A stretch of 54,676 bases of DNA from a virus. Lineage: Duplodnaviria; Caudoviricetes. The notes below the pieces were generated by a model. It had not been told where the DNA came from, did not search any database, and worked only from the letters and a program-made list of their open reading frames with translations. A program made the translations under genes and the position numbers. The stretch is taken from positions 1 to 54,676 of IMG/VR virus record IMGVR_UViG_3300009161_000056, one strand, 5' to 3'. Below, one piece after another: positions 1-48,346 of this stretch (its first letter is position 1; the number at the start of each line of letters is the position of its first letter).

Positions 1-144
1 AACTATGTTGGCTATGACCAGTACGGTACGCCAGAGCAGATGCCTGAGTTGTATGGCAATGAGTTGTATCAGAACTTGAACGCCCCCGGCTTTAACGAGG
101 TGAACGAGGGCGACTACGCCCGCATGGACGCTGAAGAGAATGGC
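1..144. repeat. Terminal overlap (copy 1) with 54533..54676; marks a circular/permuted complete genome
   Basis: 144-nt match with 4 mismatches in 3 codons (GGC/GGT, GGC/GGA, TTG/CTT), all synonymous. Confidence 0.95.
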
Positions 145-774
145 GAAGAGCCTGTCGAAGGTATGGCTGAAGGAGGCTTGCCTCAAGGTGGCCTTGGTGG
201 TTCACCGACGTTTTACACGTTTGGCAAACCCACTGACCCAATGCAGAACCTGTACAACCCACAACCTGCACAACAGCAACCGCCACAAGCTCCTCAAGGT
301 ATGCCCCCACAGGCGGCTCAGAACCAGCAACAGATGGCAATGAACCAGCCCGTGCAGGCTGTACCTGTCGGAATGCCTCAAGGCGCTTTGCAGGGTCAAA
401 ACATGGGCGGCGCAAAGCCTCCGATGCCACAACAGAACCCAATGCAAACTGGCCCCCAAGGCTTGAAGAGCGGTGGCCTGCCTGCGTGGTCTAACGTACC
501 AATCACGGCTGGTCGGCTGAACTTCCGCAATGGCGCACCCGTACACGGTGCAGGCGATGGACAGTCTGACGACATTCCAGCTATGCTTGCTGATGGCGAG
601 TATGTGATTGACGCGGAGACTGTCGCCCAAATTGGCAACGGTTCGACCAAAGCTGGCGCACAGGCTTTAGATAAATTCCGCGAAAATATCAGGGCGCACA
701 AACGGTCTGCGCCTATCAATAAAATTCCGCCCAAGACCAAGGCGCTCACATCCTATCTGAGAGGGGCAAAATAA
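1..774 (+). CDS. C-terminal part of ~1170-aa putative internal virion protein starting at 51794; ends in a tape-measure-C-terminal-like domain
   Basis: In frame with 51794 through the overlap; Q/P-rich linker, then HGAGDGQSDDIPAMLADGEYVIDAETV motif; stop overlaps next ATG (TAATG). Confidence 0.85.
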   Translation, partial: NYVGYDQYGTPEQMPELYGNELYQNLNAPGFNEVNEGDYARMDAEENGEEPVEGMAEGGLPQGGLGGSPTFYTFGKPTDPMQNLYNPQPAQQQPPQAPQGMPPQAAQNQQQMAMNQPVQAVPVGMPQGALQGQNMGGAKPPMPQQNPMQTGPQGLKSGGLPAWSNVPITAGRLNFRNGAPVHGAGDGQSDDIPAMLADGEYVIDAETVAQIGNGSTKAGAQALDKFRENIRAHKRSAPINKIPPKTKALTSYLRGAK

Positions 775-1709: not shown

Positions 1710-3650
1710 ATGGCAGTCCCACAACAACAACCCGTAGGTGGTTTGGGCGCAATGGCTCCAAAGCCTCAAGGTGCGCCTCCTCCAGAGCCTAGCGAAGCAA
1801 AGGATGCCGCCCGTATCTCTAGCATGGAGCAGGATCAGCCTGATACCCCAGCGAACATGATGGATCGTGCGATCCAAAAGCAACGTGAAGCGGCTCGCGC
1901 TCTGGAAACCCAGACAGCACTACTGCGTCAAAGTTACGACGCAAGGATGAACCTGCCCTTTGATACGTCATTGATGGCGGCGGCGGCTGGTTTCTTAAAG
2001 CCCACAAAGACTGGATCGTTTGGCGAGTCTGCTGGATATGCCGCTGAAAACTATGCGGCTGACGCTGAAAAAGCCCAGCTTCGCAAGCAACAAGCAGAGA
2101 AGCAAAAACTTGAACTAGCCCAGCAAGAGATGGCAATGGGCACCAAGAACCTTGAGTTCGAGCATATGCTTCAGATGGCTGGCTACAACCCAGCACAAGC
2201 CGCAATAGTATCAAATGCCGCTGGTGTTTCTACCCCTGCTGGCGGTGTTCCTGCTGGTGGCGCACCTATGGCTGGTGGCGCTCCACGCCCTGCCTCCGCT
2301 CCTGCTAACGTAGGCCAGACTGGCGCTCCAAATGAATTGCCGATGATCTCTGACAGAGACATCACGACCGCCTATGCGATCTCCAAAGATCATGGAGACA
2401 AGATCGCCGCGATTGCCAAGATGCAACGTGAGGACTTGATTGTCAATGAAGGCAACGTGTTCTCTAAGAGCCAGAAGAAATTCTTGGATGTCACTCCTCC
2501 TAACGAGAAGGCGGCAGACTTTAACTTTGGCCCCGCTGGTGACCGTAAGACAACCCCTGATGTGTATCGCGAATACAAGCAAATTATTGCAAGCGGCACA
2601 GACGATCAATTGCGCGACTTCTTTATTAGACAGCGTTGGCTGGCTGGCACTCCTTCTGGTGCCCCTCGGATTGGCTCGGCTGGTACAGCGCCAGCAGGAG
2701 GCGCGGCTCCCGCAGGTGCAACACCTTCAGTAGGTGGAGCAACACCAGCAGGAAAGCTACCCGCTGGCGGATTTGGTTTGCCAAGCAAGTTTAAGACCGC
2801 AGAAGAACTAGCGCAAGAGAAGATGAACCAAGAGACCGCTCTTGCAGAAAACAAAAAGTATGCAGAAGCCGCAGGAGAGATGGCAAACGATTTGCGTCTG
2901 TCTGCATTCTCTGCAACTGATATTAAAGCGTTGGCTCAAGAGGCTGGCTCTATTGCCAAAGCCGCCGCGCCTGCATTCAAGTTGTTGATGAACAAAGACG
3001 ACCAGTTCCGAAATGAGTTTGATGCCTATATGCAAATGGCAAAGACTGGAGCGCAGGCTGGTCAATTTGGAAGTTTCAGTATTCCTACTGACATCATTGA
3101 GAGAAACGGACTTACGTCTGAACAGATTCAAGCCTTGCAAAAGTTTGCTCAGATTGAAGCTCAGTTCACGTTGTTCAACCGCCGCCTATGGCTCAAAGGT
3201 CAGGGCGCGATTTCCAATGGTGAGAGTACGGTTGCGGCACAACTTGGCCCGCAGGCATCAGATCGCCCAGAGGTGATTCAGATGAAGGCCCAAGCGATTG
3301 AGCGCAAGGCTGATTTTGATGAGCAGACCTTTATGGCCTTTGAGCAGTGGAGGGAGAACAACCCCAACGGCGGCTTCAGTAAGTTCATCTCGCAATCGCC
3401 TGAGTTCAAGGCGCTCAAGACAGAATACATTGCCGACCTCAAAGCCATGCGCGATGCCAATGCAAAGTATTTTGCTGGGCCTAAGAAGCCAGCCACCACA
3501 CCTGCGGCTCCGCCAGCGGTTACGCCCACGCCAGTGCCTGCGGAGACTCCTCCCAAGCCTGCGGCAAAGCCACCCGCAAATGAAAATCCAGTGGATAGAT
3601 TTAAGCGCGAAAAAGCTGAACGCGAAAGAGCCGCACAAGGAAACCAATAA
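1710..3650 (+). CDS. Putative internal virion/ejection protein
   Basis: 646 aa; helical/coiled-coil segments with P/A/G linkers; lies between ejection genes. Confidence 0.6.
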   Translation: MAVPQQQPVGGLGAMAPKPQGAPPPEPSEAKDAARISSMEQDQPDTPANMMDRAIQKQREAARALETQTALLRQSYDARMNLPFDTSLMAAAAGFLKPTKTGSFGESAGYAAENYAADAEKAQLRKQQAEKQKLELAQQEMAMGTKNLEFEHMLQMAGYNPAQAAIVSNAAGVSTPAGGVPAGGAPMAGGAPRPASAPANVGQTGAPNELPMISDRDITTAYAISKDHGDKIAAIAKMQREDLIVNEGNVFSKSQKKFLDVTPPNEKAADFNFGPAGDRKTTPDVYREYKQIIASGTDDQLRDFFIRQRWLAGTPSGAPRIGSAGTAPAGGAAPAGATPSVGGATPAGKLPAGGFGLPSKFKTAEELAQEKMNQETALAENKKYAEAAGEMANDLRLSAFSATDIKALAQEAGSIAKAAAPAFKLLMNKDDQFRNEFDAYMQMAKTGAQAGQFGSFSIPTDIIERNGLTSEQIQALQKFAQIEAQFTLFNRRLWLKGQGAISNGESTVAAQLGPQASDRPEVIQMKAQAIERKADFDEQTFMAFEQWRENNPNGGFSKFISQSPEFKALKTEYIADLKAMRDANAKYFAGPKKPATTPAAPPAVTPTPVPAETPPKPAAKPPANENPVDRFKREKAERERAAQGNQ

Positions 3651-5482
3651 TGGACTTTAAAAAACTTTCGCCAGAGCAGATGAAGATTGCCGAGATGGTG
3701 ATCGAAGCGGCTAACGAAGTTGGCGTTGACCCTAATCTTTTGTTGGCGCAGGCGTATGAGGAAAGCCGTTTCCGCCATATTCCATCTACTGATCCAACCA
3801 GTGATGCGTTTGGTGTATTGCAAATTCGACCAAGCACAGCAGAATTAAACAAACTCGGCGACACCAGAGATTTGAAAACCAATATCTATGGTGGCGCAAA
3901 GCTGATGAAGCAGTACATTGACAAGTACAAGTCACCAGAGGCGGCGTTGTTGGCCTATCACCAAGGCCCCGGGGTCGCGGACACATACATCAAATCAAAT
4001 GGCGACCTTAAATCCGTTGGCCCCAAGGGCTTGGACTACGTCATCAACATTGGCACCAATGGTGGCTTCGGTCAACCGCCAGCGGAAGAAGCGGCGGCAG
4101 AAGGCGAAGAGCCTCCAAAGCCTCCGTTTGTGCCTGTAGCAAGCACGTTCCCAGAGGCCACCACCGACAACACTCAGACTCAAAAAAAGCCAGAGAACGT
4201 GGTGTCTCCAACTGCTGGCGCGATTACTGGCGCTCTTGCCAGCACGGTTGGTCAAGTTGGCTCTAAGCCAGAGTTGAAATATGCGGAAGCCCCTCCTGAT
4301 GTTTCGGCGGCAGAAAAAGCGGCAAGCAAAGCACAAAGACAATTTGACATTGCCGAAGAACGGCTGAACAAGCGCGTCAATAACGCCATGCCTATTGCTG
4401 GTGGAACAGACCTTGCCACGTTAGAGGCGGAGTACAGGCGCTCTCAACTCATGTTGCAAATAGCAGATCAGGAATTACAGGCCGCTACAGCCGCTCAAAA
4501 GGCCAAGGTAGCACCTACCCCTCCAGCGGCTAATTCTATGGCCTCTGCGACCCCTCAAATCATCATAGACCCCAATGCTCCCGTTCAAACTTCTCAAGAA
4601 AGAATACTTCAAGGAAAGATTGATCCAGCAACAGGTAACACTGGTCGCCAAAACATGGTTTTCAATGAAGTTACTTCATGGGAAGCAAATGAAAGAGAGT
4701 TGCAACAAAAGGCTTTAAAAGAAGCACAAAAAGCGGGTTTGATTCCAGATACTGGGCAACAGGTTCGTTCACAATTTGGTAAGCCAAGCGGAACTGCATC
4801 TGGATTGCTTGTAAAGCCAGAAGTTGGCGAGCCACTCAAACAACAAGCAGACCTTGAGCAAAAAATGGCGGACGACAAAGCCGCTCAAGAACGACTGGCC
4901 CAGCAAAATGAAATGAATCGCCTTAAAAACGAACGCGCTCTTGCGGCACAGGAACACAGCCAAGCCCAGAGTGCCTTCAATCAAGCGCAAAACGCCAAGA
5001 CCTCTGGAGTTACCCGCGCTCAGAACACAATGGAGACTGCGGAAGACAGAGCCAGACTGTTGGCTCAAGAGGCGCAAGAGGCTCGTGCGGCGGCAAAGAA
5101 TGCGCCAAACTTTGCCAACCGTCAATTGCAAAATATTGGTGTAGCAACCGCGAAGAGTGGCCCAATAGTCAAAGGTGGCTTGGGGGCGCTAGGTGGCTAT
5201 CAAGCCGCCAAGGGTATCAATACCTTGGCAAACCTGTCGCTGTCTGACCTGCAAAAACGGTATGACGATGGTGACCGTAGCCCAGAACTTATGACGGCAC
5301 TTGGGAAAGCCGCAGAGGCCACCGCGCAAGTTGGTGCTGGTGCGGCGGCGGCTATGCCTGCATTTGGTGACAAAACTGCCAAGATCAAAGGGGCGGGCCT
5401 TGCTGGAACCGCCGCGCTTGGAATATATGGACTTATGAACGCCGCTAAAGAAAAAGCAAGACAAAGGCGTGATAATCAATAG
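3650..5482 (+). CDS. Internal virion protein with N-terminal lytic transglycosylase (SLT) domain
   Basis: SLT motifs AQAYEESRF, AFGVLQIRPSTA, NIYGGAKLM, ALLAYHQGPG; coiled coil and hydrophobic C-terminus. Confidence 0.85.
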   Translation: MDFKKLSPEQMKIAEMVIEAANEVGVDPNLLLAQAYEESRFRHIPSTDPTSDAFGVLQIRPSTAELNKLGDTRDLKTNIYGGAKLMKQYIDKYKSPEAALLAYHQGPGVADTYIKSNGDLKSVGPKGLDYVINIGTNGGFGQPPAEEAAAEGEEPPKPPFVPVASTFPEATTDNTQTQKKPENVVSPTAGAITGALASTVGQVGSKPELKYAEAPPDVSAAEKAASKAQRQFDIAEERLNKRVNNAMPIAGGTDLATLEAEYRRSQLMLQIADQELQAATAAQKAKVAPTPPAANSMASATPQIIIDPNAPVQTSQERILQGKIDPATGNTGRQNMVFNEVTSWEANERELQQKALKEAQKAGLIPDTGQQVRSQFGKPSGTASGLLVKPEVGEPLKQQADLEQKMADDKAAQERLAQQNEMNRLKNERALAAQEHSQAQSAFNQAQNAKTSGVTRAQNTMETAEDRARLLAQEAQEARAAAKNAPNFANRQLQNIGVATAKSGPIVKGGLGALGGYQAAKGINTLANLSLSDLQKRYDDGDRSPELMTALGKAAEATAQVGAGAAAAMPAFGDKTAKIKGAGLAGTAALGIYGLMNAAKEKARQRRDNQ

Positions 5483-14024: not shown

Positions 14025-14263
14025 CCGATCTGTTTGGGCATGAAGAGTTCGATTGGCAAAAAGAATGGCAGGGGATGCCAGAGTTCTTTCAAGAAGACCT
14101 CACGCCATATCGAGTGATCAACTTGCGCTTTAGATGCGAGGAGGATGTGGAGGCGTTCGCCAAGCTGGTGGAGCAGACCATCACGCCCAAGCAGAAGGCG
14201 CTCTGGTTCCCCTTCGCTGAGTTCCGCAGAGCCGCGCATTTGAGGTGGGTCGATGAATCCTAA
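14021..14263 (+). CDS. Small partner protein of the TAGT-type glycosyltransferase
   Basis: EWQGMPEF...F...EDVEAFAKLVEQTIT...LWFP pattern; overlaps glycosyltransferase start. Confidence 0.65.
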   Translation: MTDLFGHEEFDWQKEWQGMPEFFQEDLTPYRVINLRFRCEEDVEAFAKLVEQTITPKQKALWFPFAEFRRAAHLRWVDES

Positions 14264-15128
14264 GTACCCTGTCTACATTGTGTCCAAGGGCCGCTGGGCT
14301 ACGCGCCTGACAAGCAAAGCATTGGATCGTATCAACGTGCCCTACTACATCGTGGTGGAGGCGCACGAGCGCGAGCAGTATGCGGCGGTGATCAACCCTG
14401 AGAGGGTGCTGGTGTTGCCAGAGGGTTACTTGTGGAACTACGACACTTGTGATGACCTTGGTGAGAAGCTCGGCAAAGGCCCCGGGGCCGCAAGAAATTT
14501 CTGCTGGGATCACTCTATGAGCTTGGGCTATGCTAGGCACTGGGTAATGGACGACAACATCGCCAGCTTCAACAGGCTGAACCGCAACCTCATGGTCAAG
14601 GTTACGTCGGGCACCATCTTCCGCGCCGCTGAAGACTTTGTGGATCGCTACGACAACGTCGCTATCGCTGGCTTCAACTATGACTTCTTTGCCAAGGCCA
14701 AGGAACCCCTGCCTGCGTTTGTGATGAACACGCGCATCTACTCCTGCCTGCTGATCCAGAACAGCATCCCCTTCCGCTGGCGAGGCCGCTACAACGAGGA
14801 CACAGACCTTTCCCTGCGTGTGCTGAAGGCCAGCTTATGCACTGTGCAGTTCAATGCATTCCTGCAAGAGAAGGCCACCACGCAAACCATGAAGGGCGGC
14901 AACACCGACGAGTTCTACTCCAAGGAGGGAACCCTGCCTAAGTCCAAGATGATCGAGCGCCTGCACCCTGATGTGGCGGAGGTGGTCTGGCGGTTCAATC
15001 GCTGGCATCACCATGTGGACTACACATCATTCAAGCGCAACCCGTTAGTGCGACGGTACGGCGTGGTCGTCCCAGAGGGGATCAACGGGTACGGCATGGT
15101 GCTGAAAGACACTAGGGAAAATACTTAA
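14253..15128 (+). CDS. GT-A fold glycosyltransferase, TET-associated (TAGT)/GREB1-like family
   Basis: YPVYIVSKGR, ARNF, HWVMDDNI, TRIYSCLLI, GRYNEDTDLSLRVL, MKGGNT motifs. Confidence 0.8.
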   Translation: MNPKYPVYIVSKGRWATRLTSKALDRINVPYYIVVEAHEREQYAAVINPERVLVLPEGYLWNYDTCDDLGEKLGKGPGAARNFCWDHSMSLGYARHWVMDDNIASFNRLNRNLMVKVTSGTIFRAAEDFVDRYDNVAIAGFNYDFFAKAKEPLPAFVMNTRIYSCLLIQNSIPFRWRGRYNEDTDLSLRVLKASLCTVQFNAFLQEKATTQTMKGGNTDEFYSKEGTLPKSKMIERLHPDVAEVVWRFNRWHHHVDYTSFKRNPLVRRYGVVVPEGINGYGMVLKDTRENT

Positions 15129-20641: not shown

Positions 20642-23600
20642 ATGGCTGACTTCCGCAAAATTGGCAAAGGCATAACTGGCGCTTTATCTAAGGCCAAGGA
20701 GATCGCCGCCGCCGAGCGTGAAGCTAACCTCCAGAGAATGCTAGACCCAAGCGCAGTGAAGATGCGCCTGTACCACGGCACGACCGCGACCGAGGGTGGC
20801 AAGGGCCAAGAGGCCATACGCCGCATTAAGCCTAGCAAGGAGGGCGCGTTAGGCTCTGGTGTATACATGACCCCTAACACCGCACACGCGAGCAGTTATA
20901 CGGGCATCCCTAATGACGACGCGATTGAGGCCATGCGCGGCAGTGAGTATTACTCCAAGATGGCTGACCAGTTTATGGCTGACCGTGCGGCAGGCACGTT
21001 GCGTGAAGGGCAGGCAGGCGGCAATATGTTGCCAGTCTATGCCCAGATCAAGAACCCTCTGATCATTGGCAAGTCAGGCAGGCAGATTGATCCAGCCGCA
21101 GAAGCCCTGATCAACCTTGGCATGGACGAGGCGAGCGCCATCAAGCTAGTGGAGAAGGCGTTCGAGGAGAAGGGCAACATTGGCAAGCAGATTCAGAGCA
21201 GGGCGCAGGCTCAAGGCTATGACGGCATCATGCAGTATCGAGGCGACGACCTGAGTGAGGTGGTGTCTTACAACCCTAACGCAGTCAAGAGCGCCATCGG
21301 CAACCAAGGCACTTACGACATTTACAGTCCAGACTTGAGCAAAGCCAATGGTGGCGCAATCCACATGGAAGAGGGTGGAAGTTTTGTATTGGGTAAGCCA
21401 AAAAGTTTTACGGAAAGGCTTAGTGAAGCAGTTCCAAAGGCAATAAGAATACCCAAAGACCCATTAGCCATTATTCTTAATCACGGTTATGGCGCTTACA
21501 AAAATTACACAGGTAAAGACCCGCTAGGTGATTTCCAAAAAGAACTTGATCGCAAGATAAACCCTGAGACTGATACAGGTTCTGCGCCTGTCCAGCAGTT
21601 TGAAAAGTTGGCTGATGGTGGCAAGATTGTGAAGGGCGTGACTGGCGCATTGAACAAAGCCAAGTATTTGGCAAGCGAGGCCAAGCGATTGAAGATGGGC
21701 GAGGTACTGCCAAAGGAAGAGGCCGATGAAAACCTTCGCAAGATGCTTGACTCAAGCAAGATCAAAGAGAAGCTGTATCACGCAACGCCGAGCGACATCA
21801 AGTTCTTCAAGCCGGGTGGCCTCGATCCACGAGTCAGTGGCGAAGCAATTTGGCTATCCAACGATCCAACCAGAACACCCGCCGCCCACAACATCGGCTC
21901 CTACGACAACCCACGCCAAGGCGTAAACGTCATGCCCGTCCATGTGCAAGCCAAGAACCCAATGGTGCTTGACGACGAGACCATGCTCAAGTGGGCGCAA
22001 GAGGTGTATGGCGAAGGCAGTCGCGAGTTCCCCATGTTGATGCCTAAGAAGTGGCGCGAAGAGGTGATGAAGGATTACGATAGCATCGTGCTGGCTGATC
22101 CATACAAGCGCGGCGACTCACATGAGATCATTATGTTTGAGCCAGAGAAGATCAAATCAGCAATAGGTAACCGTGGGACGTACAACACAGACACGGCAGA
22201 CATAACCAAATCGAAAGGCGGGGTGCTTCATATGGCAGACGCAGGAAAAGTAACCAAGGGAATAGTTGGTGCATTAACCAAAGCCAAAGAGATGGCAAAG
22301 GCCCGCAAGGCCACCGCAGAAGGTTCTAAGATTGAAGAGGTGCTGGCAAGCCAAACTCCTCCGATGACTACACCAAGCGGCACAGGTTTGCCACTCATGC
22401 CTCGCGACAATGGGATGTACACCCTGCGTGAGCAAAAAGACCTGCCCCGTATGCCAATGGTGGACAAGGCCCGCGCCGAGGGTAAGTCACCCAAGTACAA
22501 CGAGCGTATGCAAGACTTGCTTGACAGCCCCAAGGCCAGACAGAAGGTGGACAAGTTGATCAACAAGGGCAAAGAGTTGAACGTGCAGGAGTGGTATGGC
22601 ACTGAACCTCTACGTCAGGTCGCGTTAGACGCAGGCCGCACCCCAGAACAGTTTGAGTCACTGATGGCCCAGTTGGCAAGCGCCAGCCAGCGCAACCCAG
22701 TGGACAAGCAAAACCAGATGGGATCGTACCTGTACCACCTGAGTGAGTCGGGCCAACTGCCAGAGAACTCGCTCCTCTTGACCAACAAGCTCAAGAAGGC
22801 GCTCAAAGAAGACCCCTCACTTGCTGAAGGTCGCACACTCGTCGAGTTGCCCACAGGCTACGGATCGCTGGCGCAGGGTGACATCTTCAACCGCGCTGTG
22901 ATGATTGGTCAGGGCAAGATCGGTGAAGCCCTGCCCCCAAACAAGAAGCTCGGCACGTTCTACGAGAACTTGCTTGGCAACCTAAAGCCCGTGACGGTGG
23001 ATGTAAACGCACTGCGTGGCCCGATCATTGAGCAGGGTGACCCGCGCTGGTTGACCAGCAAGCTCGTGGAGAAGGACGACAAGGGCAAGATCATCAACAG
23101 CTACAAGCCTCGTGAGATGTACAACTCAGGGGAGATGTCGATGAGAGAAGCGCAACAGCGCCCCGGGTTCTGGGAGGCCGCGCCCTCTGGCTCCGAATAC
23201 GCAGGCTTCGAGGAGTTGTGGCAACGTGGTGCCAAGCGCCACAACGTCGAGCCAGCAGAGGCGCAGGCTTTGGGTTGGTACGGCTCCGCTGATGTGACGG
23301 CGCTGAAGACTAAGCCAGAGAACTATGTGGACAACCTAGAGCGCCTGATCAAACGCACCGCCGAGCAGACTGGCAAGTCCGCCACTGAGGTGATGAACGA
23401 CATGGTCACAGGCAATGGGTTCCTTCGCAAAGACGGTGGCAAAGTCGAGGAACCGCACTGGCACAACGTCTTCAACCGCAAGATGAAGGAAGGTGGCTAC
23501 GCTTGGGTTGACAGCAAGCACATCCCCAAGGTTCGCTCGCTCAAGAATATGGCAAAGGGCGGCTCATCAGATGATCCTCCCTTTAGTGAATACATTAAAG

Positions 23601-24220
23601 ATGTACCACAGGTCATAAAAGAAGCAACTCAAGAAGAAGCCGAGTCATACAAAAAACCTCGCGCTATTTCCGATGTGATCTACCGTGGTTTGGTTGCCAA
23701 CAACCCTGTTAGCGCAGGCGTTGACATGGTAAACATGGGCCTAATGGGCGTAGATGCGGTGTCTGGCCTTATGGGAAAACCGACTCGGTTAGCGAGTGAA
23801 AAGCCATTCGCTGGTTCCGAACACGTTAAAGACCTGATGAAGAAGTACGGCGTGACCACTGAAGAGGAGCGTCCAATCTCTGAGACTCTGCTTGGCATTA
23901 CATCGCCCACGGCAATTCTCAAGGGCGCAAAAGAAATACCAAAATTACTTGGCAAAGCAGGCGACGCTATCAAGGGTGGCTTGCCAAAGAACCTGCCTGT
24001 GGGCATGAGCATCGAGATTGTTGGCGACTTGACTCCCAAAGAGCAGGCGCTTGCCAAAATGCGCGAGATGCGCCCAGACTTAAAAGCCACTTCTGATTTA
24101 CAAAAGAAGTACGATGCTGAGATGGATAGCAAGTACACCCGTGATATGCCTACGTTCGAGCAGTGGAAAGCCAAGCAGAACGCTAAGAAGGCTCACGGCG
24201 GTTTAACCTTGATGAGATAA
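20642..24220 (+). CDS. Polyvalent protein: two ADP-ribosyltransferase-like (ART-PolyVal-type) domains, a putative HhH/glycosylase-like domain and further modules
   Basis: Two YH[GA]T...PV[YH]...KNP...YD[GS]I...E...[VI]KSAIGNxGTY units (~20762-21340, ~21765-22200); third domain ~22590-23420. Confidence 0.75.
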   Translation: MADFRKIGKGITGALSKAKEIAAAEREANLQRMLDPSAVKMRLYHGTTATEGGKGQEAIRRIKPSKEGALGSGVYMTPNTAHASSYTGIPNDDAIEAMRGSEYYSKMADQFMADRAAGTLREGQAGGNMLPVYAQIKNPLIIGKSGRQIDPAAEALINLGMDEASAIKLVEKAFEEKGNIGKQIQSRAQAQGYDGIMQYRGDDLSEVVSYNPNAVKSAIGNQGTYDIYSPDLSKANGGAIHMEEGGSFVLGKPKSFTERLSEAVPKAIRIPKDPLAIILNHGYGAYKNYTGKDPLGDFQKELDRKINPETDTGSAPVQQFEKLADGGKIVKGVTGALNKAKYLASEAKRLKMGEVLPKEEADENLRKMLDSSKIKEKLYHATPSDIKFFKPGGLDPRVSGEAIWLSNDPTRTPAAHNIGSYDNPRQGVNVMPVHVQAKNPMVLDDETMLKWAQEVYGEGSREFPMLMPKKWREEVMKDYDSIVLADPYKRGDSHEIIMFEPEKIKSAIGNRGTYNTDTADITKSKGGVLHMADAGKVTKGIVGALTKAKEMAKARKATAEGSKIEEVLASQTPPMTTPSGTGLPLMPRDNGMYTLREQKDLPRMPMVDKARAEGKSPKYNERMQDLLDSPKARQKVDKLINKGKELNVQEWYGTEPLRQVALDAGRTPEQFESLMAQLASASQRNPVDKQNQMGSYLYHLSESGQLPENSLLLTNKLKKALKEDPSLAEGRTLVELPTGYGSLAQGDIFNRAVMIGQGKIGEALPPNKKLGTFYENLLGNLKPVTVDVNALRGPIIEQGDPRWLTSKLVEKDDKGKIINSYKPREMYNSGEMSMREAQQRPGFWEAAPSGSEYAGFEELWQRGAKRHNVEPAEAQALGWYGSADVTALKTKPENYVDNLERLIKRTAEQTGKSATEVMNDMVTGNGFLRKDGGKVEEPHWHNVFNRKMKEGGYAWVDSKHIPKVRSLKNMAKGGSSDDPPFSEYIKDVPQVIKEATQEEAESYKKPRAISDVIYRGLVANNPVSAGVDMVNMGLMGVDAVSGLMGKPTRLASEKPFAGSEHVKDLMKKYGVTTEEERPISETLLGITSPTAILKGAKEIPKLLGKAGDAIKGGLPKNLPVGMSIEIVGDLTPKEQALAKMREMRPDLKATSDLQKKYDAEMDSKYTRDMPTFEQWKAKQNAKKAHGGLTLMR

Positions 24221-26914: not shown

Positions 26915-27096
26915 GGTATACCTCCGACTTCATCGGCGCTGTAAAAGCGCGTAAAGAAGCTATTACGCAGAGTTTGGCAGTGGGTAACGCCTCTGACTAC
27001 CCTGCGTATCAGCGACTGGTCGGACATATCGCTGGACTTGAAGAAGCCCTTGTCATTCTTGATAACCTTTTAAAGGAAGAAGACGATGACAGATAG
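26911..27096 (+). CDS. Small head-module protein (61 aa)
   Basis: LAVGNASDYPAYQRLVGHIAGL, typical of the small gene preceding phage GroES. Confidence 0.7.
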   Translation: MRYTSDFIGAVKARKEAITQSLAVGNASDYPAYQRLVGHIAGLEEALVILDNLLKEEDDDR

Positions 27097-27520
27097 CACG
27101 GTGGCTGGTAATTCAGCCGATTTGCGGGAAGCCTTTCCTGCTGTAGACCCCGGAGCGAAACCCCTTGGCGCACGAGTTTTAGTACAACTGCGTCGAACAA
27201 AGAAGACGGTAACTGCAAGCGGGATTGTTCTGGTCTCAGAGACCAGAGAAACCGAGAAGTGGCAAAACATGGTCGCGAAAGTGATCGAGATCGGCCCATT
27301 GGCGTTTAAGAAGCGCGACACAATGGAACCGTGGCCCGAAGGTTCATGGTGTGAAGTTGGTGATTATCTTCGCGTCCCTAAGTGGGGCGGTGATCGTTGG
27401 GAGGTTCCAGTCCCTGACGCAGAACAAGATGATGACCCAGCGTTGTTTATGGTTCTAAACGACCATGAAATCATCGCAAAACTTACTGGTGACCCCCTTG
27501 CAATGAAGGCATTCATATGA
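27086..27520 (+). CDS. groES: GroES-like co-chaperonin
   Basis: KPLGARVLV, TASGIVL, AKVIEIGP, EVGD, LNDHEII. Confidence 0.85.
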   Translation: MTDSTVAGNSADLREAFPAVDPGAKPLGARVLVQLRRTKKTVTASGIVLVSETRETEKWQNMVAKVIEIGPLAFKKRDTMEPWPEGSWCEVGDYLRVPKWGGDRWEVPVPDAEQDDDPALFMVLNDHEIIAKLTGDPLAMKAFI

Positions 27521-28488
27521 GTACCGAAACAGAACAAGAAGTAATCGTCATCCAAGAGGAGAAAGACGGCTCCGCGACGATTGACTTACCCGCAAGCATC
27601 CCTTCGCCTGATGCAAATCACGAAGAGGACTCCGAAGAGGCTGATGAAGCCGCTAGACGGGCCGAAATGGCCTCTGGTGGTGAAGTAGACGCTGACGCTG
27701 AAGCCCTAAGAGAGCAGAAACGCCTCAAAAGACTCAAGCGCAAGGAGTACCACAAGGCTGTCTCAACCGAAAAAGACCACAAACTGGACTTTTTAAGCCG
27801 CCAAAACCAAGAATTGCTCGAAAGACTGTCGGTTTTGGAGAAAAAGTCGCATGGAAGTGACCTTGCTCGCCTCAATAAGGCGATGGAAGACCAGCACAAC
27901 CGTATTTTGTTTGCAAAACAGAAGATTTCAGAGGCAACTAGCACTGGCAACGGTGAATTGCTGACTTCTGCACAGGAAATGTGGTTTGAAGCCCGCCGCC
28001 AGTTTGAGGCATTGGACGCAGTCAAGAAAAAAGCGACTGCCCAGCCCCGCCAGCGGACTATTCAAGCCCCTGATCCTCAATTGCAAAAACACGCATCCTC
28101 TTGGATGGAAAACAATCAGTGGTACGACCCTAATGGTCGCGACGCTGATTCAAGAGTTGCGCTAACGATTGACCAAGCAATGGCTGAAGAGGGTTGGAAC
28201 CCCAAAACTCCTCAATATTGGGAGGAGCTTGACAGCCGCTTGCAAAAGTATCTACCTCACAGGTATACTGGAGAGGCAGACGAGAGACCATCTCAAAAGC
28301 GCCCAAGAAACTTTGTGACTGGGTCAGGCCGCGAAAGTGCGTCGAGTAGTGCGATTGGCAAAAATCAGTTTGCGTTAACACGCGAACAGGTCAGCGCAAT
28401 GAAAGATGCTGGAATGTGGGATGACCCCGATAAACGCGCAAAAATGATTCGTCGTTATGCGCTTGAAGCTAAACAACTTAGGAGCTAA
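27517..28488 (+). CDS. Putative capsid scaffolding protein
   Basis: Acidic N-terminus, coiled coil, WMENNQWY and YWEELDSRL motifs; position before capsid. Confidence 0.7.
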   Translation: MSTETEQEVIVIQEEKDGSATIDLPASIPSPDANHEEDSEEADEAARRAEMASGGEVDADAEALREQKRLKRLKRKEYHKAVSTEKDHKLDFLSRQNQELLERLSVLEKKSHGSDLARLNKAMEDQHNRILFAKQKISEATSTGNGELLTSAQEMWFEARRQFEALDAVKKKATAQPRQRTIQAPDPQLQKHASSWMENNQWYDPNGRDADSRVALTIDQAMAEEGWNPKTPQYWEELDSRLQKYLPHRYTGEADERPSQKRPRNFVTGSGRESASSSAIGKNQFALTREQVSAMKDAGMWDDPDKRAKMIRRYALEAKQLRS

Positions 28489-30638: not shown

Positions 30639-31616
30639 ATGCCCCAATTTTCAGATGATCTTTTTCTAGGCTCCGCCATTACCTATCAAGGTATGGATGC
30701 CTATCCTGCTGTTGCGACTTTCACGGGTTCAATTTCTACCACTACACTAACCGTCACCGCTATGCTGTCTGGTGATCCAATTACTGTTGGTATGTTTATT
30801 GACAGTTCAACGTCACTCACCAATGGAACTTACATTACCGCTTTTGGTACAGGTTCTGGCGGTACAGGTACTTACACGGTCAGTGCCTCACAAACTGTAG
30901 CAAGCGCTACGATCATTGGTTCTGGTAATGCTTTGTTGCAAAACCCATCTCCCATGAGCGTAGGTGTTGGCCCACTGGGTCGTGTTTATATTTGGGACGC
31001 TGTACCACAAGCAAAATTGACAACCAACATTGTTGCCGCTGTCATCACAACTGCTACCACGCTTACGCTTGCCGCAGGTGCAGGTGTGACATCCACAACC
31101 ATAACTGGTGGTGGTACGGGTTTGCAACTTGACTGCCCTCGTGCGGTTTCCACAACCACAGGCGCGGGTACTCCGACTTCTGTCAACATTACTGTTTCTG
31201 GTTACGACTACTACGGTCAAGCCATGAGCGAGGTAATTGCAACAGGAACAGTAGCTTCAACTACTGTAAACGGTAAAAAAGCCTTCTACCAAATTGCCAG
31301 TGTTACTGCTTCTGGTGCAAGTGTTGTAACCGTTGCGGTAGGTACAACCGACATCTTGGGTGCGCCATTGCGTATCACTGATAGAGGCTACGTCACCCGT
31401 GCGGGCTGGGACAATACTTTGGCTGAAGATGGTGGAACTATGACTGTTGCCGCTACCGCCACAGCTACCACCACAACTGGTGATGTAAGGGGTACTTACT
31501 TGCCATCTTCGGCGGCAGACGGTATCAAGCGCCTTGTGATGGGAATAGCCCTGCCAGCAATTGCGGCAGGCCCGAATGCAACCCGTGTTGGCGCGTTTGG
31601 CGTCACACAAGCATAA
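30639..31616 (+). CDS. Putative structural (head fibre/decoration) protein
   Basis: 325 aa T/G/A-rich beta protein; AAGGAG RBS. Confidence 0.65.
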
Positions 31617-31626
31617 GGAGAGCGAC

Positions 31627-32718
31627 ATGGGTCAATTCAAACCGATGGTCAAGATGGAGACCACTGAGCCTTCAGTCATACTGAAACTCAAAAAAGGCGG
31701 TCATGTAAACATGAAAAAGGGTGGCAAGGCGGAAGCTGGTCACAAGAAGATGGCTGACGGTGGTGGTGCTATGGGCGCTTTGATGGGCACCCCAGCACTG
31801 GTTGGTCGTCCTGCGGTGAACGCTCCCGTGCAGTCCCCCGGCAAGCCTTCGATGGCCTCACGCCGCAAGGCAATGATGGCTAAGAAGCCCGCTATGGGCA
31901 TGGGCACCCCTTCTGGCCCCGCAATGCCTGCTGGCAATCCAGCAATGCCTGCAATGAAAAAAGGCGGCAAGATGGCGGAAGGCGGCAAGTCTGACAAAGC
32001 TCAAGACAAAGCCATGATCAAGAAGGCTTTTAAGCAACACGATATGCAAGAGCATATGGGCGGCAAAGGCACTTCATTGAAACTCAAAAAGGGCGGCATG
32101 AAGAAGTACGCTTCTGGTGGTGCTATTCCTTCCGAGACAACTTCTGGTTCTTACGACACCACGTTGATGCACCAAGCCAAGAAAGACACTGCCAGCGGTA
32201 CTGGCGGCGTAAAACTAGGCAACGCTGGTGGATTTAAAAAGGGCGGCAAGGCTTTGAAGATGGCAACGGGTGGAGCAATCCCATCTGAGACAACCTCTGG
32301 CAATTACGACACTACTTTGATGCATCAGGCCGCGCCTGATAACTCTAGGGCCGTAACGGGCGGCGTTCGATATGGAAATGCTGGCGGTTTTAAAACTGGC
32401 GGCGTGACTGAATCTAACGGCGGTGGTTATCGCAAAGGCGGTGCCGCAAAAAAGTTTGCTGATGGGGGGAAAGTGCAAGACGACGGTGGCCCTGAGAAGA
32501 TGCCACAAGGTCGTAAGCCTGCCTCCCAGCCAGTAGAGATCAATATGCTCTCTGGCGCTTTTAAAAATGGCGGTAAAGTGGCCCCGGGGAACAAGGCGCT
32601 CCAAGCCAGTTTTAACAAGACCAACGCTCCTGCAATGCGTGAAGCAAAAGCAAAGAGTGTTGAGGCTTACGCCCCAATGGGTTCCGTAGTTCGCAAGAAC
32701 AGAGGCGGGATGTGCTGA
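31627..32718 (+). CDS. Basic low-complexity protein with 13-14 [MLFY][AKR]xGG motifs
   Basis: TAAGGAG RBS; 363 aa K/G/M/A-rich; internal 51-aa duplication. Confidence 0.8.
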   Translation: MGQFKPMVKMETTEPSVILKLKKGGHVNMKKGGKAEAGHKKMADGGGAMGALMGTPALVGRPAVNAPVQSPGKPSMASRRKAMMAKKPAMGMGTPSGPAMPAGNPAMPAMKKGGKMAEGGKSDKAQDKAMIKKAFKQHDMQEHMGGKGTSLKLKKGGMKKYASGGAIPSETTSGSYDTTLMHQAKKDTASGTGGVKLGNAGGFKKGGKALKMATGGAIPSETTSGNYDTTLMHQAAPDNSRAVTGGVRYGNAGGFKTGGVTESNGGGYRKGGAAKKFADGGKVQDDGGPEKMPQGRKPASQPVEINMLSGAFKNGGKVAPGNKALQASFNKTNAPAMREAKAKSVEAYAPMGSVVRKNRGGMC

Positions 32719-33181: not shown

Positions 33182-33706
33182 ATGCCAAGCAAATCACCTT
33201 CCCAACATCGTTTGATGGAGGCGGTCGCACATAACCCTGCGTTCGCCAAAAAGGTGGGTATTCCCCAAAAAGTTGGCAAAGAGTTTGCTCGTGCTGATGA
33301 GGGGAAAAAACTTAAAGGAGGCGGTCTATATGACAACATCAATGCAAAACGTCAAAGAATCGCTGAAGGTTCTGGCGAAAAAATGCGCCGAGTGGGTAGC
33401 AAAGGTGCGCCAACGGCTGAAGCCTTCCGAGAGTCAGCAAAAACCGCCAAATTAAAAGATGGCGGGCCAAGTCTTGCTGTTGGACGGGGTGAAAAATTAT
33501 CCGTTGAAAAGGGCGCAGGGCTTACGCAAAAGGGCAGAGACAAATACAATAGAGAGACTGGTTCTCACTTGAAAGCTCCACAGCCTCAAGGCGGTGCCCG
33601 TAAGGATTCATTTTGTGCCCGCATGAGCGGGGTGGTTGAACATTCAAAAGGGGACGCTCCACGCGCCAAAGCATCGCTGAAGCGGTGGGACTGCCCCGGC
33701 TGGTAA
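33182..33706 (+). CDS. Basic three-module protein with C-terminal DUF6321-like domain
   Basis: RKDSFCARMSG...ASLKRWDC; modules separated by LKGGG and LKDGG. Confidence 0.65.
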   Translation: MPSKSPSQHRLMEAVAHNPAFAKKVGIPQKVGKEFARADEGKKLKGGGLYDNINAKRQRIAEGSGEKMRRVGSKGAPTAEAFRESAKTAKLKDGGPSLAVGRGEKLSVEKGAGLTQKGRDKYNRETGSHLKAPQPQGGARKDSFCARMSGVVEHSKGDAPRAKASLKRWDCPGW

Positions 33707-33717
33707 GGACACATAAC

Positions 33718-34779
33718 ATGGCGTTTTCTGGAACCGTAGGACAGACCGTCATCAATGTACAGACATTGATTGATCACGGCGCTAGACGCTGTGGAAAGCT
33801 CGCCGAAGAGTTAACTTCTGAGCAGGTGCTGTCAGCCCGACAATCGCTGTACTTCTTGCTTTCCAATCTTGGAAACCGAGGTATTCAGTTTTGGACAATC
33901 ACCAAGAAGGTTCTTGGTTCACAGATAGACAACTACCTTTACACCCTTCCAAAAGGCACAATTGACCTCTGGAACGTGCTGTATCGCACAATGGCGCGCC
34001 CCAATGGCGCATACACCAGTTCTGCTGGCGGAACCGTTGCAAACGTATATGACGGTGATACACAGACGATTTGCACCCAAACGTCCGCTGATGGCAACAT
34101 TTCCGTCAATTACGGCACATCCAACCCAATTTATATTGGCTCCATTGGATTCTTGCCTGCTTCGACTGGCTCGTGGTCAATCATTTATGAATACTCAATA
34201 GACGGCACAACTTGGGCCACTTTGGTTGATCTTGGCACCATTGATGTGGTCAACAACACTTGGGTGTGGACTGACATTGAGGCTGGTCAAACGGTCGCTT
34301 TTTACCGCATTCGCGCCTACAACACGACAACCCTGTCGTTGCGTGAGTTGTACTTTGGGAACAACTCGCTTGAGGTTCAGATGTCTCCACTGAACCGCGA
34401 CGACTACACCAACCTGCCAAACAAGAACTTTACAGCAAACCAACCTTATCAATATTGGTTTGACCGCACTATTCCCCAGCCATCGATTTATGTGTGGCCT
34501 ACGCCATCAACTGCTTTTGTGCAGATCGTTTGCTGGTACTCGCGTCAAATTGAAGACGTTGGATCACTCACTGATGAGCTTGAGATTCCCCAGCGTTGGT
34601 ATGAGGCTGTGCAGATGATGCTTGCCCACCGCATGGCGCTTGAGTTGCCACAGGTTGCAATGGATCGTGTTGGCTATCTTGAAAAGATGGCGGATAAGTT
34701 TTTGGCAGATGCTGAAGCTGAAGAGCGGGATCGTTCACCAATTTACTGGGCACCGAATATTTCGGTGTATACGGCCTAA
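33718..34779 (+). CDS. Head-tail adaptor-like protein with inserted jelly-roll (discoidin-like) domain
   Basis: LNRDDYTNLPNK, QYWFD, VWPTP, IPQRWYEA motifs; central EYSIDGTTWAT...YRIR insert. Confidence 0.65.
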   Translation: MAFSGTVGQTVINVQTLIDHGARRCGKLAEELTSEQVLSARQSLYFLLSNLGNRGIQFWTITKKVLGSQIDNYLYTLPKGTIDLWNVLYRTMARPNGAYTSSAGGTVANVYDGDTQTICTQTSADGNISVNYGTSNPIYIGSIGFLPASTGSWSIIYEYSIDGTTWATLVDLGTIDVVNNTWVWTDIEAGQTVAFYRIRAYNTTTLSLRELYFGNNSLEVQMSPLNRDDYTNLPNKNFTANQPYQYWFDRTIPQPSIYVWPTPSTAFVQIVCWYSRQIEDVGSLTDELEIPQRWYEAVQMMLAHRMALELPQVAMDRVGYLEKMADKFLADAEAEERDRSPIYWAPNISVYTA

Positions 34780-35153: not shown

Positions 35154-37217
35154 ATGTCCGCACAAGTAACCATACTCCAACTCCCAACCGCTGGTGCTAT
35201 TACAGGTACTGAGGCGGTTCCGATTGTCCAAAATGGGGTGACCGTACAAACTACGACTGCGGCGCTTGCTGGCTCACCCGTTCAGACCTACACCTATTTG
35301 ACGGTCACACAGACCCCTCAACTTGCAAACAGTCGCTATGTTGGCGCAACCAATGGTTTGGTAACCACCGACGGCGGAGCGCAGGGAGTCTTCAATATAA
35401 GCACCACAGGCGCTTTATTGTCTTTGGTGAACTCTGGTACTGGGTTTCAGGTTAAAACGTCTTCTACAGCCATTACAGGGCGTTCTATCGCTGTTTCTGG
35501 CAATGGGTTGTCAATTACAAACGGTTCTGGCATATCTGGCGACCCGACCATCGCTTTGAGTGGTCAAGTGTTGAATTTTGCCAATGCCAGTTTTAATGGA
35601 CTTGTGGTGCTTTCGACTGGTGGCGCTATCACTTCTGCGACCATTACGGGAACTGCAAGCCAAATTAGCGTTGCAAACGGAACTGGGGTAAGCGGTAATC
35701 CAACAATTTCTTTGGCGGATAACCCTGTGTTGCCCGGTCTTGAGAGCGTCACCGTACCAATTGGCGCTACGGGTTCGCGCCCATCTTCTGCTGTAAATGG
35801 TATGTTGCGCTACAACACCACCCTTGCCGTCTTTGAAGGCTACGCAAACGGCGTATGGGGTGCAATTACAACGGGTTCAGGTGTTACCTCTGTTGGTACT
35901 GGCACAGGTCTGACGGGTGGGCCAATCACCACCACTGGCACGATTTCTATTGCCAACACGACCGTTGTTGCTGGTACTTACGGCAGTTCAACCAATGTGG
36001 GTCAGTTCACGGTCAACGCGCAAGGTCAACTGACTTTTGCTGGGGATGTGGCTATCAGCGCCGCTTCTATTGGCGCAGTGACTACCATCCTTGGTACGGC
36101 AAACGAAATAACCGCAACGGGTACATCGACTGTCACATTGTCTTTGCCCGTGGCTTTGACTTTTTCTGGCAAAACAGTAACGGGTGGCACGTTCAACATG
36201 ACAGCGGCAACCGTTGGGGCAGACACTGTTGCTACCCTGACCGCAAATCAGACGCTCACAAACAAGACCATCAGCGGCGCAAGCAACACGCTGACCAACA
36301 TCGCTAACGCATCGCTGACCAATTCGTCTGTGACGGTTGGAACAACGGCAATTGCCTTGGGCGCATCAAGTCTTACCTTGGGCGGTCTGACTTCTGTTGC
36401 TGTAACTCAAGACCCCGTGTCTGCATTGCAATTGGCTACCAAGCAGTATGTTGATTCAGTAGCGCAAGGATTAGACCCAAAAGCATCTTGCGTGGCGGCA
36501 ACAACGGCAAACATTACGTTGTCTGGAACGCAGACGATTGATGGGGTGGCGTTGATTGCTGGAGATAGGTGCTTGGTTAAAGACCAGACATTGAGCCAGA
36601 ACAATGGAATTTACTTGGTTGCGGCGGGCGCATGGACTCGTGCAACGGATATGGACACTTGGGCGGAAGTCCCCGGCGCATTCACCTTTATCGAGCAAGG
36701 AACCCTATACGCTGACACTGGTTGGGTTTGTACTTCAAACGCAGGCGGTACTTTGGGTACGACTCCCATCACTTGGGTTCAATTTGCTGGTGTAGGCTCT
36801 TACACCGCAGGCACGGGACTGACCCTCACGGGTACGCAGTTCAGCATTACCAATACGGCTGTCACAGCGGCTTCGTATGGCTCTGCAACTCAAGTGGGTA
36901 CGTTTACGGTCAATGCACAGGGTCAATTGACTTTGGCGGGCAATACTACGGTGACTCCAGCGGTCGGCTCCATCACTGGGTTGGGTACTGGGGTTGCGAC
37001 TGCTTTAGCGGTCAACGTAGGCTCTGCTGGTGCTTTTGTGACGTTCAATGGGGCTTTGGGTACACCAAGTAGTGGTACGGTTACAAACTTGACTGGTACT
37101 GCATCGATTAACATTAACGGAACTGTTGGTGCTACAACACCTACGACGGGCGCATTTACTACTGTAGCCGCGACAACGGTAACCGCAACAACTGGCATCT
37201 TCGGAGGAACTTTTTAA
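35154..37217 (+). CDS. Tail fibre protein
   Basis: G/T-rich; GMLRYNT..FEGY, ATKQYVD, ITLSGTQTIDGV...LVKDQT...NGIY; repeat VGxFTVNAQGQLTxAG. Confidence 0.8.
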   Translation: MSAQVTILQLPTAGAITGTEAVPIVQNGVTVQTTTAALAGSPVQTYTYLTVTQTPQLANSRYVGATNGLVTTDGGAQGVFNISTTGALLSLVNSGTGFQVKTSSTAITGRSIAVSGNGLSITNGSGISGDPTIALSGQVLNFANASFNGLVVLSTGGAITSATITGTASQISVANGTGVSGNPTISLADNPVLPGLESVTVPIGATGSRPSSAVNGMLRYNTTLAVFEGYANGVWGAITTGSGVTSVGTGTGLTGGPITTTGTISIANTTVVAGTYGSSTNVGQFTVNAQGQLTFAGDVAISAASIGAVTTILGTANEITATGTSTVTLSLPVALTFSGKTVTGGTFNMTAATVGADTVATLTANQTLTNKTISGASNTLTNIANASLTNSSVTVGTTAIALGASSLTLGGLTSVAVTQDPVSALQLATKQYVDSVAQGLDPKASCVAATTANITLSGTQTIDGVALIAGDRCLVKDQTLSQNNGIYLVAAGAWTRATDMDTWAEVPGAFTFIEQGTLYADTGWVCTSNAGGTLGTTPITWVQFAGVGSYTAGTGLTLTGTQFSITNTAVTAASYGSATQVGTFTVNAQGQLTLAGNTTVTPAVGSITGLGTGVATALAVNVGSAGAFVTFNGALGTPSSGTVTNLTGTASININGTVGATTPTTGAFTTVAATTVTATTGIFGGTF

Positions 37218-48065: not shown

Positions 48066-48346
48066 TTGACTTTATTGAAATCTTCAACGTCGTGGCAAGG
48101 GTGGCAAAGCCCGTCCATATGTCTTTCAAGCCCGCCGAGGCTATGGAGGACGCAATGGCTGAATTGAACATTGACAGCTTGGATGGTTTGGTGATGCTAA
48201 TGTACTTCTGCGAAATCTACGGCGTAGACGACGAGACCAGCAAAGAATGGCACCCAACCACCGTGCAAGAGTGTCACGACCTGCTTATGGCCCACAAGAC
48301 CATAGAGCCTGAGTCCATTGAGAAGATCAAGGAGCAGATCAAGTGA
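48062..48346 (+). CDS. Acyl carrier protein-like protein
   Basis: 94 aa acidic; ELNIDSLDGL phosphopantetheine motif (Ser39); EIYGV and TTVQE match ACP helix pattern. Confidence 0.8.
   Translation: MIDFIEIFNVVARVAKPVHMSFKPAEAMEDAMAELNIDSLDGLVMLMYFCEIYGVDDETSKEWHPTTVQECHDLLMAHKTIEPESIEKIKEQIK

Follow-up and report, generated by a model that had tools for sequence, protein, structure and literature searches.

A tape-measure-type module at the C-terminus of a giant short-tailed-phage protein, a candidate non-enzymatic anchor

Homology, anatomy and predicted fold of the module

The DNA analyzed here is the IMG/VR virus record IMGVR_UViG_3300009161_000056 (Duplodnaviria; Caudoviricetes), taken at its full length of 54,676 nucleotides and hereafter called the window. 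It encodes a giant protein of 1170 amino acids, the last 257 of which (positions 1–774, plus strand) comprise a Gln/Pro-rich linker followed by a conserved module. Sequence comparison makes the homology of this module to a unit of phage tape measure proteins secure. By analogy, the most likely function, and the most economical one, is that proposed for the tape-measure unit, a non-enzymatic self-pairing anchor, and we tentatively favour the reading of the module as a C-terminal anchor of the giant protein.

The likeness to tape measure proteins was found by several searches. The 257-residue piece matches ten PHROG families at E ≤ 0.01, seven of which are tail length tape measure families, and all seven matches cover residues ~152–236. 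The strongest are phrog_6090 (E 3e-8), phrog_5448 (5.7e-7), phrog_25241 (9.5e-6) and phrog_3547 (6.5e-5), followed by phrog_934 (0.0019), phrog_23013 (0.0059) and phrog_17300 (0.0074); the other three are two families of unknown function and a single-stranded DNA-binding protein family that matches the Gln/Pro-rich linker. A tblastn search with residues 134–257 returned 63 phage records, mostly annotated tape measure proteins, with matches in the annotated tape measure proteins of Gordonia (25), Arthrobacter (18) and Tsukamurella (6) phages; the best matches are the Caulobacter phages GB2A, RW, RLK and KcrB, with 53% identity and an E value of 4e-17. A scan of 1.84 billion representative sequences yielded 9766 proteins at E ≤ 1e-3, 3284 at 1e-10 and 194 at 1e-30, while a word-index search gave 3406 at E ≤ 1e-3 (3632 candidates); among the 120 word-index matches listed, every name is missing or generic, and no Pfam domain falls on the module. 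When one tape-measure-type unit was used as the query, it matched 800 of 50,697 phage records, and 35 of 40 rows sampled across that ranking are annotated tape measure proteins, the other five being hypothetical or coil-containing. A profile of the alignment A1 also aligns to the tape measure protein of JD024 over 60 columns (hhalign probability 63%, E 7e-5).

Domain collections hold no model for the module. No Pfam match (E ≤ 0.01) was obtained in either part of the giant protein, nor any NCBIfam match; no model of either collection covers the module, and in lambda gpH the Pfam assignments span only residues 54–256 and 627–701. In the open-access literature, no paper was found that describes the unit as a family or places it in short-tailed phages. 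A local hidden Markov model (HMM) built from the matches finds the module once in the window, both in the set of 67 proteins and in the six reading frames. The original prediction had described a tape-measure-like domain at the end of a giant protein, the only one of its kind in the genome; the protein, the quoted peptide and the two GG motifs before it are all present where it placed them, and both the likeness and the uniqueness hold. Two further candidates were set aside. A fungal endoglucanase, retrieved by phmmer against PDB sequences (E 0.0077), matches the low-complexity part only and was judged meaningless, and Crassvirus cargo protein 1 (PF25725), a language-model lead with a score of 0.84, has neither a Pfam match nor a six-frame match at E ≤ 10.

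Positions 463–771 encode one copy of the module, consisting of a GxGxxSD loop, a predicted β-hairpin centred on an invariant Gly-Glu, and two predicted helices. All features of the module lie on the plus strand. The conserved block opens with LKSGG (463–477; consensus MxxGGLPxxxxVPxxxGR), both glycines of which are at least 90% conserved in alignment A1, and further upstream the MAEGG motif (163–177) is kept as MA[ED]GG[QLM]P in relatives. The core peptide FRNGAPVHGAGDGQSDDIPAMLADGEYVIDAETVAQIG is encoded at 523–636 in frame 1. In the ten-row alignment A3, which contains the window, GB2A, Pag-Yong1, DSL-LC04, HTVC115P and five siphovirus tape measure proteins, FRNGA (523–537) stands in degenerate form where tape-measure units have their proximal [FY]AxGG flank. 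The loop GAGDGQSDD (547–573) follows, with GxG and SD invariant in A3, and then IPAMLADGEYVID (574–612), a predicted β-hairpin with an invariant Glu. AETVAQIG, a loop and AGAQALDKFRENIRAHKR (613–705) would form the two helices; the boundaries of hairpin and helices are transferred by alignment from a two-unit model presented below. Only the short-tailed-phage branch has the basic C-terminal tail SAPINKIPPKTKALTSYLRGAK (706–771), with I93, P94, P95 and Y103 invariant in A1.

The window has all ten invariant columns of A3 (G29, G31, S35, D36, A40, E46, V48, A51, V54 and G58) and satisfies the signature GxGxxSDx[IV]PAxLxxGE[FYH]VxxAxxVxxxG. Ser-Asp and Glu are invariant in A3, and lambda retains only the Glu. 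The residue before GE is Ser in eight of the ten rows and Ala in the window and Pag-Yong1. The replacement of the usual Ser by Ala, which the original prediction had pointed out, is correct, but its view of this Ser as a catalytic position is not supported: the residue varies among S, A, H and R across homologues. In tape measure proteins the unit has [FY]A[TSD]GG on either side, as in Nitrincola (FATGGYVSGAGTGTSDSIPAWLSNGEFVINAQAVKKLGLGNLEKLNQGMMPQFSTGGYV). The window has a degenerate form, FRNGA, as its proximal flank, with the conserved LKSGG 20 residues before it; the basic tail HKRSAPINKIPPKTKALTSYLRGAK replaces the distal flank, which is retained in GB2A and HTVC115P.

The position of the unit differs between the two groups of proteins. 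In the short-tailed branch, the module ends at most 11 residues from the C-terminus in 150 of 150 proteins (the best 150 of the 9766; lengths 91–1758 residues). Where the phage host is Gram-negative, the unit of the tape measure protein lies ~60 to 110 residues before the end. Measured between the last aligned residue of the tblastn match and the last codon, the distance is 62 residues in R5C, 80 in Nitrincola, 88 in Vibrio 1.023.O, 101 in vB_E175 and 112 in JD024; in lambda gpH, 71 residues follow YATGG. In R5C, vB_E175 and JD024, PF09718 is followed by a Gly-rich or hydrophobic stretch and then by the unit, an order that corresponds to that of lambda. In actinophage tape measure proteins the unit is further from the end and adjoins lytic domains: LilDestine has an NlpC/P60 domain between two units, and Woes has a unit followed by an SLT domain.

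Structure prediction with AlphaFold2 gave a poor model for the single unit of the window (predicted local distance difference test score, pLDDT, 52; 40-row alignment) and a confident one for the natural tandem protein P0136, in which residues 141–230 reach pLDDT values of 86–92 (21 rows). Each P0136 unit is modelled as strand (7)–strand (3)–helix (7)–helix (14 or more), and the predicted template modelling score (pTM) is 0.48, with 105 disordered leading residues. Two tandem units are found by hmmsearch in 21 of the best 150 representatives, and phmmer splits 35 of the best 150 into two or more rows. The contrast between the confident two-unit fold and the poor single-unit fold implies that a unit may need a second copy to fold, and the models suggest that the unit self-pairs. 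A complex prediction with two copies of the window module (A1) scored 0.38 against a mark of 0.42, with controls at 0.00, and counts neither way. The two-unit model finds nothing in the PDB at E ≤ 1e-3 with Foldseek (best E 0.18), and VIA-align 2 gives a best Z of 3.6 with weak KH-like rows and no peptidase listed, a result that leaves room for a peptidase without a fold match. Ribbon-helix-helix and AbrB-like folds, considered from the strand-helix-helix order, do not appear in the rows of either program.

The giant gene, its block and the phage type

The gene of the giant protein crosses the ends of the record. Frame 1 of the plus strand is open from base 1 to the stop codon at 772–774. The last 144 bases of the record are 97% identical to the first 144 (140/144), so that the 3'-open reading frame at 51794–54676 (plus strand, 961 residues) runs in frame into 1–774; because 54533–54676 repeats 1–144, the coding sequence resumes at base 145. 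The joined frame is stop-free over 1170 residues, and an uninterrupted metagenomic homologue (P0011, 1289 residues) aligns through the junction. In related IMG/VR loci the gene encodes 392–1947 residues, with a median of 964 (n = 67 with a complete-looking reading frame). The source labels the record 'linear'; a gene that crosses its ends, together with a terminal repeat (1–144 and 54533–54676) carrying four mismatches, points to an assembly that is circularly permuted or circular, with a variant overlap. The N-terminal part of 961 residues is of low complexity, rich in Thr, Gly and Asp, and contains YDxxGN repeats, with AKGGLFGMAKGG at residues 603–614 of the giant protein. These repeats (e.g., NFYDADGYLV) are also found at the ends of many p310 homologues, and YDxxGN is thus a second short motif common to proteins of the block described next.

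Three genes follow on the plus strand. The start of p310 (774–1706) overlaps the stop of the giant gene; p646 (1710–3650) has no family match; and the gene at 3650–5482 encodes a 610-residue protein with an N-terminal lytic transglycosylase domain (PF01464, residues 16–120, E 3.4e-14), which takes the part of T7 gp16 in the block. Neither p310 nor p646 has a match among PDB sequences. The unit was confirmed in at least 531 IMG/VR stretches, and gene order was examined in 80 loci. A p310 homologue follows the domain gene in 66 of the 80, the other 14 having at most 1405 nucleotides downstream, and in all 66 it starts between -7 and +4 nucleotides from the stop of the domain gene. Of 62 loci that extend far enough downstream, 46 have p646; the lytic transglycosylase (SLT) protein is present in 18 of 56, and p750 lies upstream of the domain gene in 43 of 43. 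The order p750, domain protein, p310, p646, SLT protein is common to the relatives and is also found in Caulobacter phage GB2A. The block qualifies as a T7-type ejection block: its large proteins finish with one that has a lytic transglycosylase domain at the N-terminus, and the phage is short-tailed; the giant protein would presumably be located in the virion and would itself be ejected.

The assignment to the short-tailed type, made already in the original prediction, is supported as follows. Among 38 window proteins scanned with PHROGs there is no tail tube, sheath, terminator or tape-measure (G/GT) chaperone match. The open reading frame at 33685–34779 gives an SU10 adaptor match (PF24175) with an E value of 6.9e-6, which only just reaches the cut-off. 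The capsid protein shares 76% identity with its counterpart in the Caulobacter Riverwalk phages and 40% with the one of HTVC023P. In the electron microscope HTVC023P, like HTVC115P, is a podovirus (bioRxiv 10.1101/2019.12.14.876532), and both have the unit. In HTVC115P the unit protein, gp72 (335 residues), is encoded between portal and scaffold-like genes, and the unit is hence not tied to p310; p310 and HTVC115P gp71 are unrelated (BLASTP E 1.8).

Several other plus-strand genes of the window deserve mention. A β-ketoacyl synthase-like gene (48343–49458; PF02801, PF00109) lies within the virion block, and 17 of 43 related IMG/VR loci have such a gene ahead of the one for the domain protein. 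The gene at 14253–15128 resembles β-glucosyl-HMC-α-glucosyltransferase (phrog_842, 1.5e-52), which hints at sugar-modified DNA bases. A GroES-like co-chaperonin gene (27086–27520; phrog_3188, 7.8e-10) is located just after the portal gene, and such a gene is also listed for HTVC023P-type pelagiphages (bioRxiv 10.1101/2019.12.14.876532). Two tail-fibre-like proteins (35154–37217 and 44316–45548) both end in GGTF.

Comparison with named systems and a possible anchor

A search of PDB sequences with the A3 profile retrieved two entries, Douge gp16 (8zdo_S, two units, E 1.5e-19) and the tape measure protein gp46 of Pseudomonas phage JBD30 (8rk3_A, PDB 8RK3, residues 1019–1085, E 3.2e-10). The unit lies outside the built part of both structures, which comprises only residues 1658–1699 in Douge (PMC13033339) and only the last 33 residues in JBD30 (PMC11445458). 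For JBD30 gp46, the authors predicted a hook at residues 1022–1066, formed by a short β-hairpin and two helices, and compared it to the hook of T5 (PMC11445458); in the open-access literature searched, this hook is described only in that paper. JBD30 and the window therefore share a matching sequence unit and matching predicted elements. They differ in that the JBD30 unit is internal, ~75 residues before the end, and lies between FASGG and HATGG with a hub-binding coiled coil behind it, whereas that of the window is terminal, lacks the distal GG flank, ends in a basic KIPPK tail and is carried by a protein that is not a tape measure.

Lambda gpH appears to carry a diverged copy. As the original prediction had stated, FATGG (733–737), GEFV (754–757) and YATGG (778–782) are present, and gpH is processed near its C-terminus, the cleavage site and the catalyst being called unknown in the paper (PMC12617516). 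Residues 733–782 align to the unit core with an hhalign probability of 72% (E 3.3e-5, 22 columns), and the A3 profile, run over the whole lambda genome, has this region as its sole match (E 0.01); the narrower A1 profile has no lambda match at E ≤ 1. Statistical support for homology is thus moderate. The segment FATGG...GEFVF...YATGG is placed like the full units of R5C, vB_E175 and JD024, which share PF09718 just upstream, although lambda lacks the GxGxxSD loop. [quoted passage not shown]

The T5 protein pb2 offers a functional parallel. In T5, 43 C-terminal residues of the processed pb2* are modelled in the crevice of the opened hub, and in the model of its authors, once the tail tip has opened, the expelled protein stays anchored to it through its new C-terminus (bioRxiv 10.1101/2022.09.20.507954). 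By eye, SSGELSYL...GIGNAN...RAEGG of pb2 resembles GEFV...G[LV]GN...A[TS]GG, but hhalign gives a probability of 0.5% and the local HMM no match; since neither supports the likeness, T5 is not counted as a member. The metallopeptidase motif of pb2C is a T5 feature, and T5 has AEGG at the boundary of its last 92 residues. Among short-tailed phages, the blocks of the cyanopodophage A4 (gp27) and T7 (gp14–gp16) resemble that of the window in combining a long protein with a lytic transglycosylase protein as the last member; as far as compared, sequence similarity is confined to the SLT domain. The A4 giant ejection protein is ordered over short stretches only and is held in place at its C-terminus, where a helix inserts into an adjacent ejection protein (PMC12002296); this element, a single helix with a disulfide, differs from the module of the window.

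On the anchor reading, the unit would not fold alone and would pair with a second copy, and the pair may fix the C-terminal end of an extended protein inside the tail or the ejection conduit. Anchoring by a hook at the new C-terminus of a processed tape measure protein has been proposed for JBD30 and T5 (PMC11445458; bioRxiv 10.1101/2022.09.20.507954), and the giant protein of the window would resemble an already processed tape measure protein, its hook being terminal, with no plug domain behind. The h-A/K-x-GG motifs would then mark flanks and linkers, both in the module and in other virion cargo proteins.

Several observations weigh against this proposal. The unit lies outside the built or resolved parts of the lambda, Douge and JBD30 structures; the JBD30 hook is itself a prediction, with a role on which its authors speculate (PMC11445458); and the T5 hook, the only one seen by cryo-electron microscopy, has no detectable homology to the unit. 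The two-unit model matches no known fold, and the fold thus offers no functional hint. The HTVC115P gene lies outside an ejection block, so the unit protein may act inside the head. Finally, Ser-Asp and Glu are strictly conserved in most members, which may reflect a chemical or metal-binding role rather than mere packing.

GG motifs, alternative functions and implications

The pattern [MLFYIV][AK].GG occurs 25 times in the 67 window proteins, against 6.6 ± 2.5 expected (500 shuffles, maximum 14), and M[AK].GG occurs 11 times against 0.7. The figure of ~30 xAxGG motifs in the original prediction was roughly right, and the enrichment is real. The motif is found in the protein encoded at 31561–32718 (12 copies), in an ADP-ribosyltransferase (ART)-PolyVal protein (four), in the giant protein (three), in p310 and the product of 33182–33706 (two each), and in those of 27517–28488 and 39198–41225 (one each). 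The first of these (plus strand, 385 residues) contains 16.6% Gly and 23 GG, its motifs including LKKGG, MKKGG, MADGG and MAEGG; it is encoded after the capsid and Ig-like genes, with a TTG start that overlaps the previous reading frame, and has no PHROG or Pfam match. The ART-PolyVal protein (20642–24220, plus strand, 1192 residues) is encoded between the large terminase and portal genes, contains the ADP-ribosyltransferase domain PF18760 (1.4e-26, residues 377–513), and ends in AHGGLTLMR; h-x-x-GG at residues 323–327 and 522–527 brackets the domain, and the protein has such motifs at its domain borders and end without a hook unit. The p310 tail contains KADGG, MKKGG and LARGG, and h-x-x-GG occurs within the last 48 residues of 30 of 59 distinct p310 tails.

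The motif also accompanies the domain in its relatives. Upstream of the module, 274 motifs are found in 138 representatives with at least 100 residues there, against 37.2 ± 5.7 expected (200 shuffles, maximum 52), and 123 of the 138 have at least one. Counts over whole genomes give another picture. Among six genomes with a clear unit, an excess is seen in two, the window (25 vs 6.1) and HTVC023P (14 vs 6.6, reached in 2 of 300 shuffles), and none in GB2A (6 vs 6.1), HTVC115P (6 vs 4.4), Pag-Yong1 (9 vs 7.9) and Woes (7 vs 6.9). Lambda, with its diverged unit, has none either (3 vs 3.0), and the four unit-free genomes T7, P22, CRP-901 and QDWS535 show no excess. A genome-wide excess of the motif therefore does not follow the unit.

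In a second, less probable explanation, the unit and its h-A-x-GG flanks would be a processing module, a cis element that sets the cut sites of tape measure and cargo proteins, either by self-cleavage or by presenting the site to a host or phage protease. In this phage, the giant protein, p310 and the polyvalent ART protein would all be cut where the motif stands. In line with this, [FY]A[TSD]GG brackets the unit on both sides in tape measure proteins, units flank lytic domains in those of LilDestine and Woes, motifs bracket the ART domain, and motifs accumulate upstream of the module in the relatives. A cut before A734 of the lambda FATGG would give products of 79.8 and 12.5 kDa, and the published gpH products are ~78 kDa and a peptide of ~14 kDa (PMC12617516). 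In T5, the cleavage site has been mapped by mass spectrometry and separates the lytic domain from the rest (bioRxiv 10.1101/2022.09.20.507954); if pb2C is exactly the last 92 residues (a length taken from PMC12617516), the boundary would fall between FVPR and AEGG, and a by-eye count of 43 + 9 + 46 residues agrees with this boundary within a few residues.

Other findings speak against processing. The T5 boundary at AEGG is conditional on a 92-residue pb2C, and AEGG stands at the presumed T5 cut without a detectable unit, so that this cut can do without the unit. Searches of Pfam and NCBIfam gave no peptidase family, and Foldseek and VIA-align 2 no peptidase fold; lambda lacks the Ser-Asp pair. 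The module of the short-tailed branch is already C-terminal, and in the family of the window no distal GG flank follows it. We regard it as unlikely, though as the most interesting alternative, that h-A-x-GG is a conserved cut or hinge signal of phage DNA-conduit and cargo proteins, with the adjacent unit as its defining cis element.

Still less probable is a docking role, in which the C-terminal module would bind p310, the product of the translationally coupled gene, and build the giant protein into a pre-ejectosome in the head. The close spacing of the two genes in all 66 loci and the conservation of the pair from the window to GB2A are in keeping with such a role, as is the way in which the A4 giant protein is held by its neighbour. 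Gene neighbourhood alone is weak evidence, however, and the unit is present without p310 both in tape measure proteins and in HTVC115P gp72, whose downstream gene is unrelated to p310.

The original prediction had gone further and proposed that the domain reads or cleaves some 25–30 h-A/K-x-GG cargo motifs in trans, which we consider very improbable. The motif is indeed enriched in the window genome and in HTVC023P, with no excess in the unit-free genomes, and proteins that are probably packaged contain it (the ART-PolyVal protein, p310, the giant protein and the product of 31561–32718). On the other hand, four of the six genomes with a clear unit lack an excess; neither a protease signature nor a protease fold was found, the supposed catalytic position varies, and lambda has no Ser-Asp. 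A single small unit in each genome would also have to serve many sites, and in tape measure proteins the motif borders the unit on either side as part of it and is no separate substrate. The part of the proposal that stands is that the GG motif is real and accompanies the domain.

That the giant protein is a true tape measure of a long tail with unrecognised genes is barely credible: GenBank annotates the GB2A and DSL-LC04 homologues as tape measure proteins, and a long protein followed by mid-sized ones is what is seen at tape measure genes, but tape-measure Pfam domains (PF10145, PF06791, PF09718, PF24622 and others) are missing, the 38 proteins scanned with PHROGs include no long-tail match and an SU10-type adaptor is present, the relatives by capsid protein are podoviruses under the microscope (bioRxiv 10.1101/2019.12.14.876532), the N-terminal 900 residues of Thr/Gly/Asp-rich low complexity are unlike a helical tape, and the SLT protein occupies the position of T7 gp16.

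The unit is very common, with 9766 representative clusters, 800 cultured-phage records and at least 531 IMG/VR stretches, and yet it has no family model. It provides a concrete sequence link between long-tail tape measure proteins and short-tail ejection proteins, which have so far been treated as unrelated, in a group of short-tailed, environmentally abundant phages related to HTVC023P and the Riverwalk phages. For structural biology it defines a target of 60–100 residues, the natural tandem form of which folds confidently in prediction, and it is a candidate for the old question of the site and mechanism of lambda gpH cleavage. If the GG motif is a cut signal, this would explain the conversion of gpH to gpH* and gpHC, by a cut before A734 or A779, and that of T5 pb2 to pb2* and pb2C, between FVPR and AEGG; the giant protein, p310 and the polyvalent ART protein would be carved into working pieces, and tape measure and short-tailed ejection proteins would share an ancestral distal module. 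If the unit is only a packing element, it would still be a marker for annotating the distal end of these proteins.

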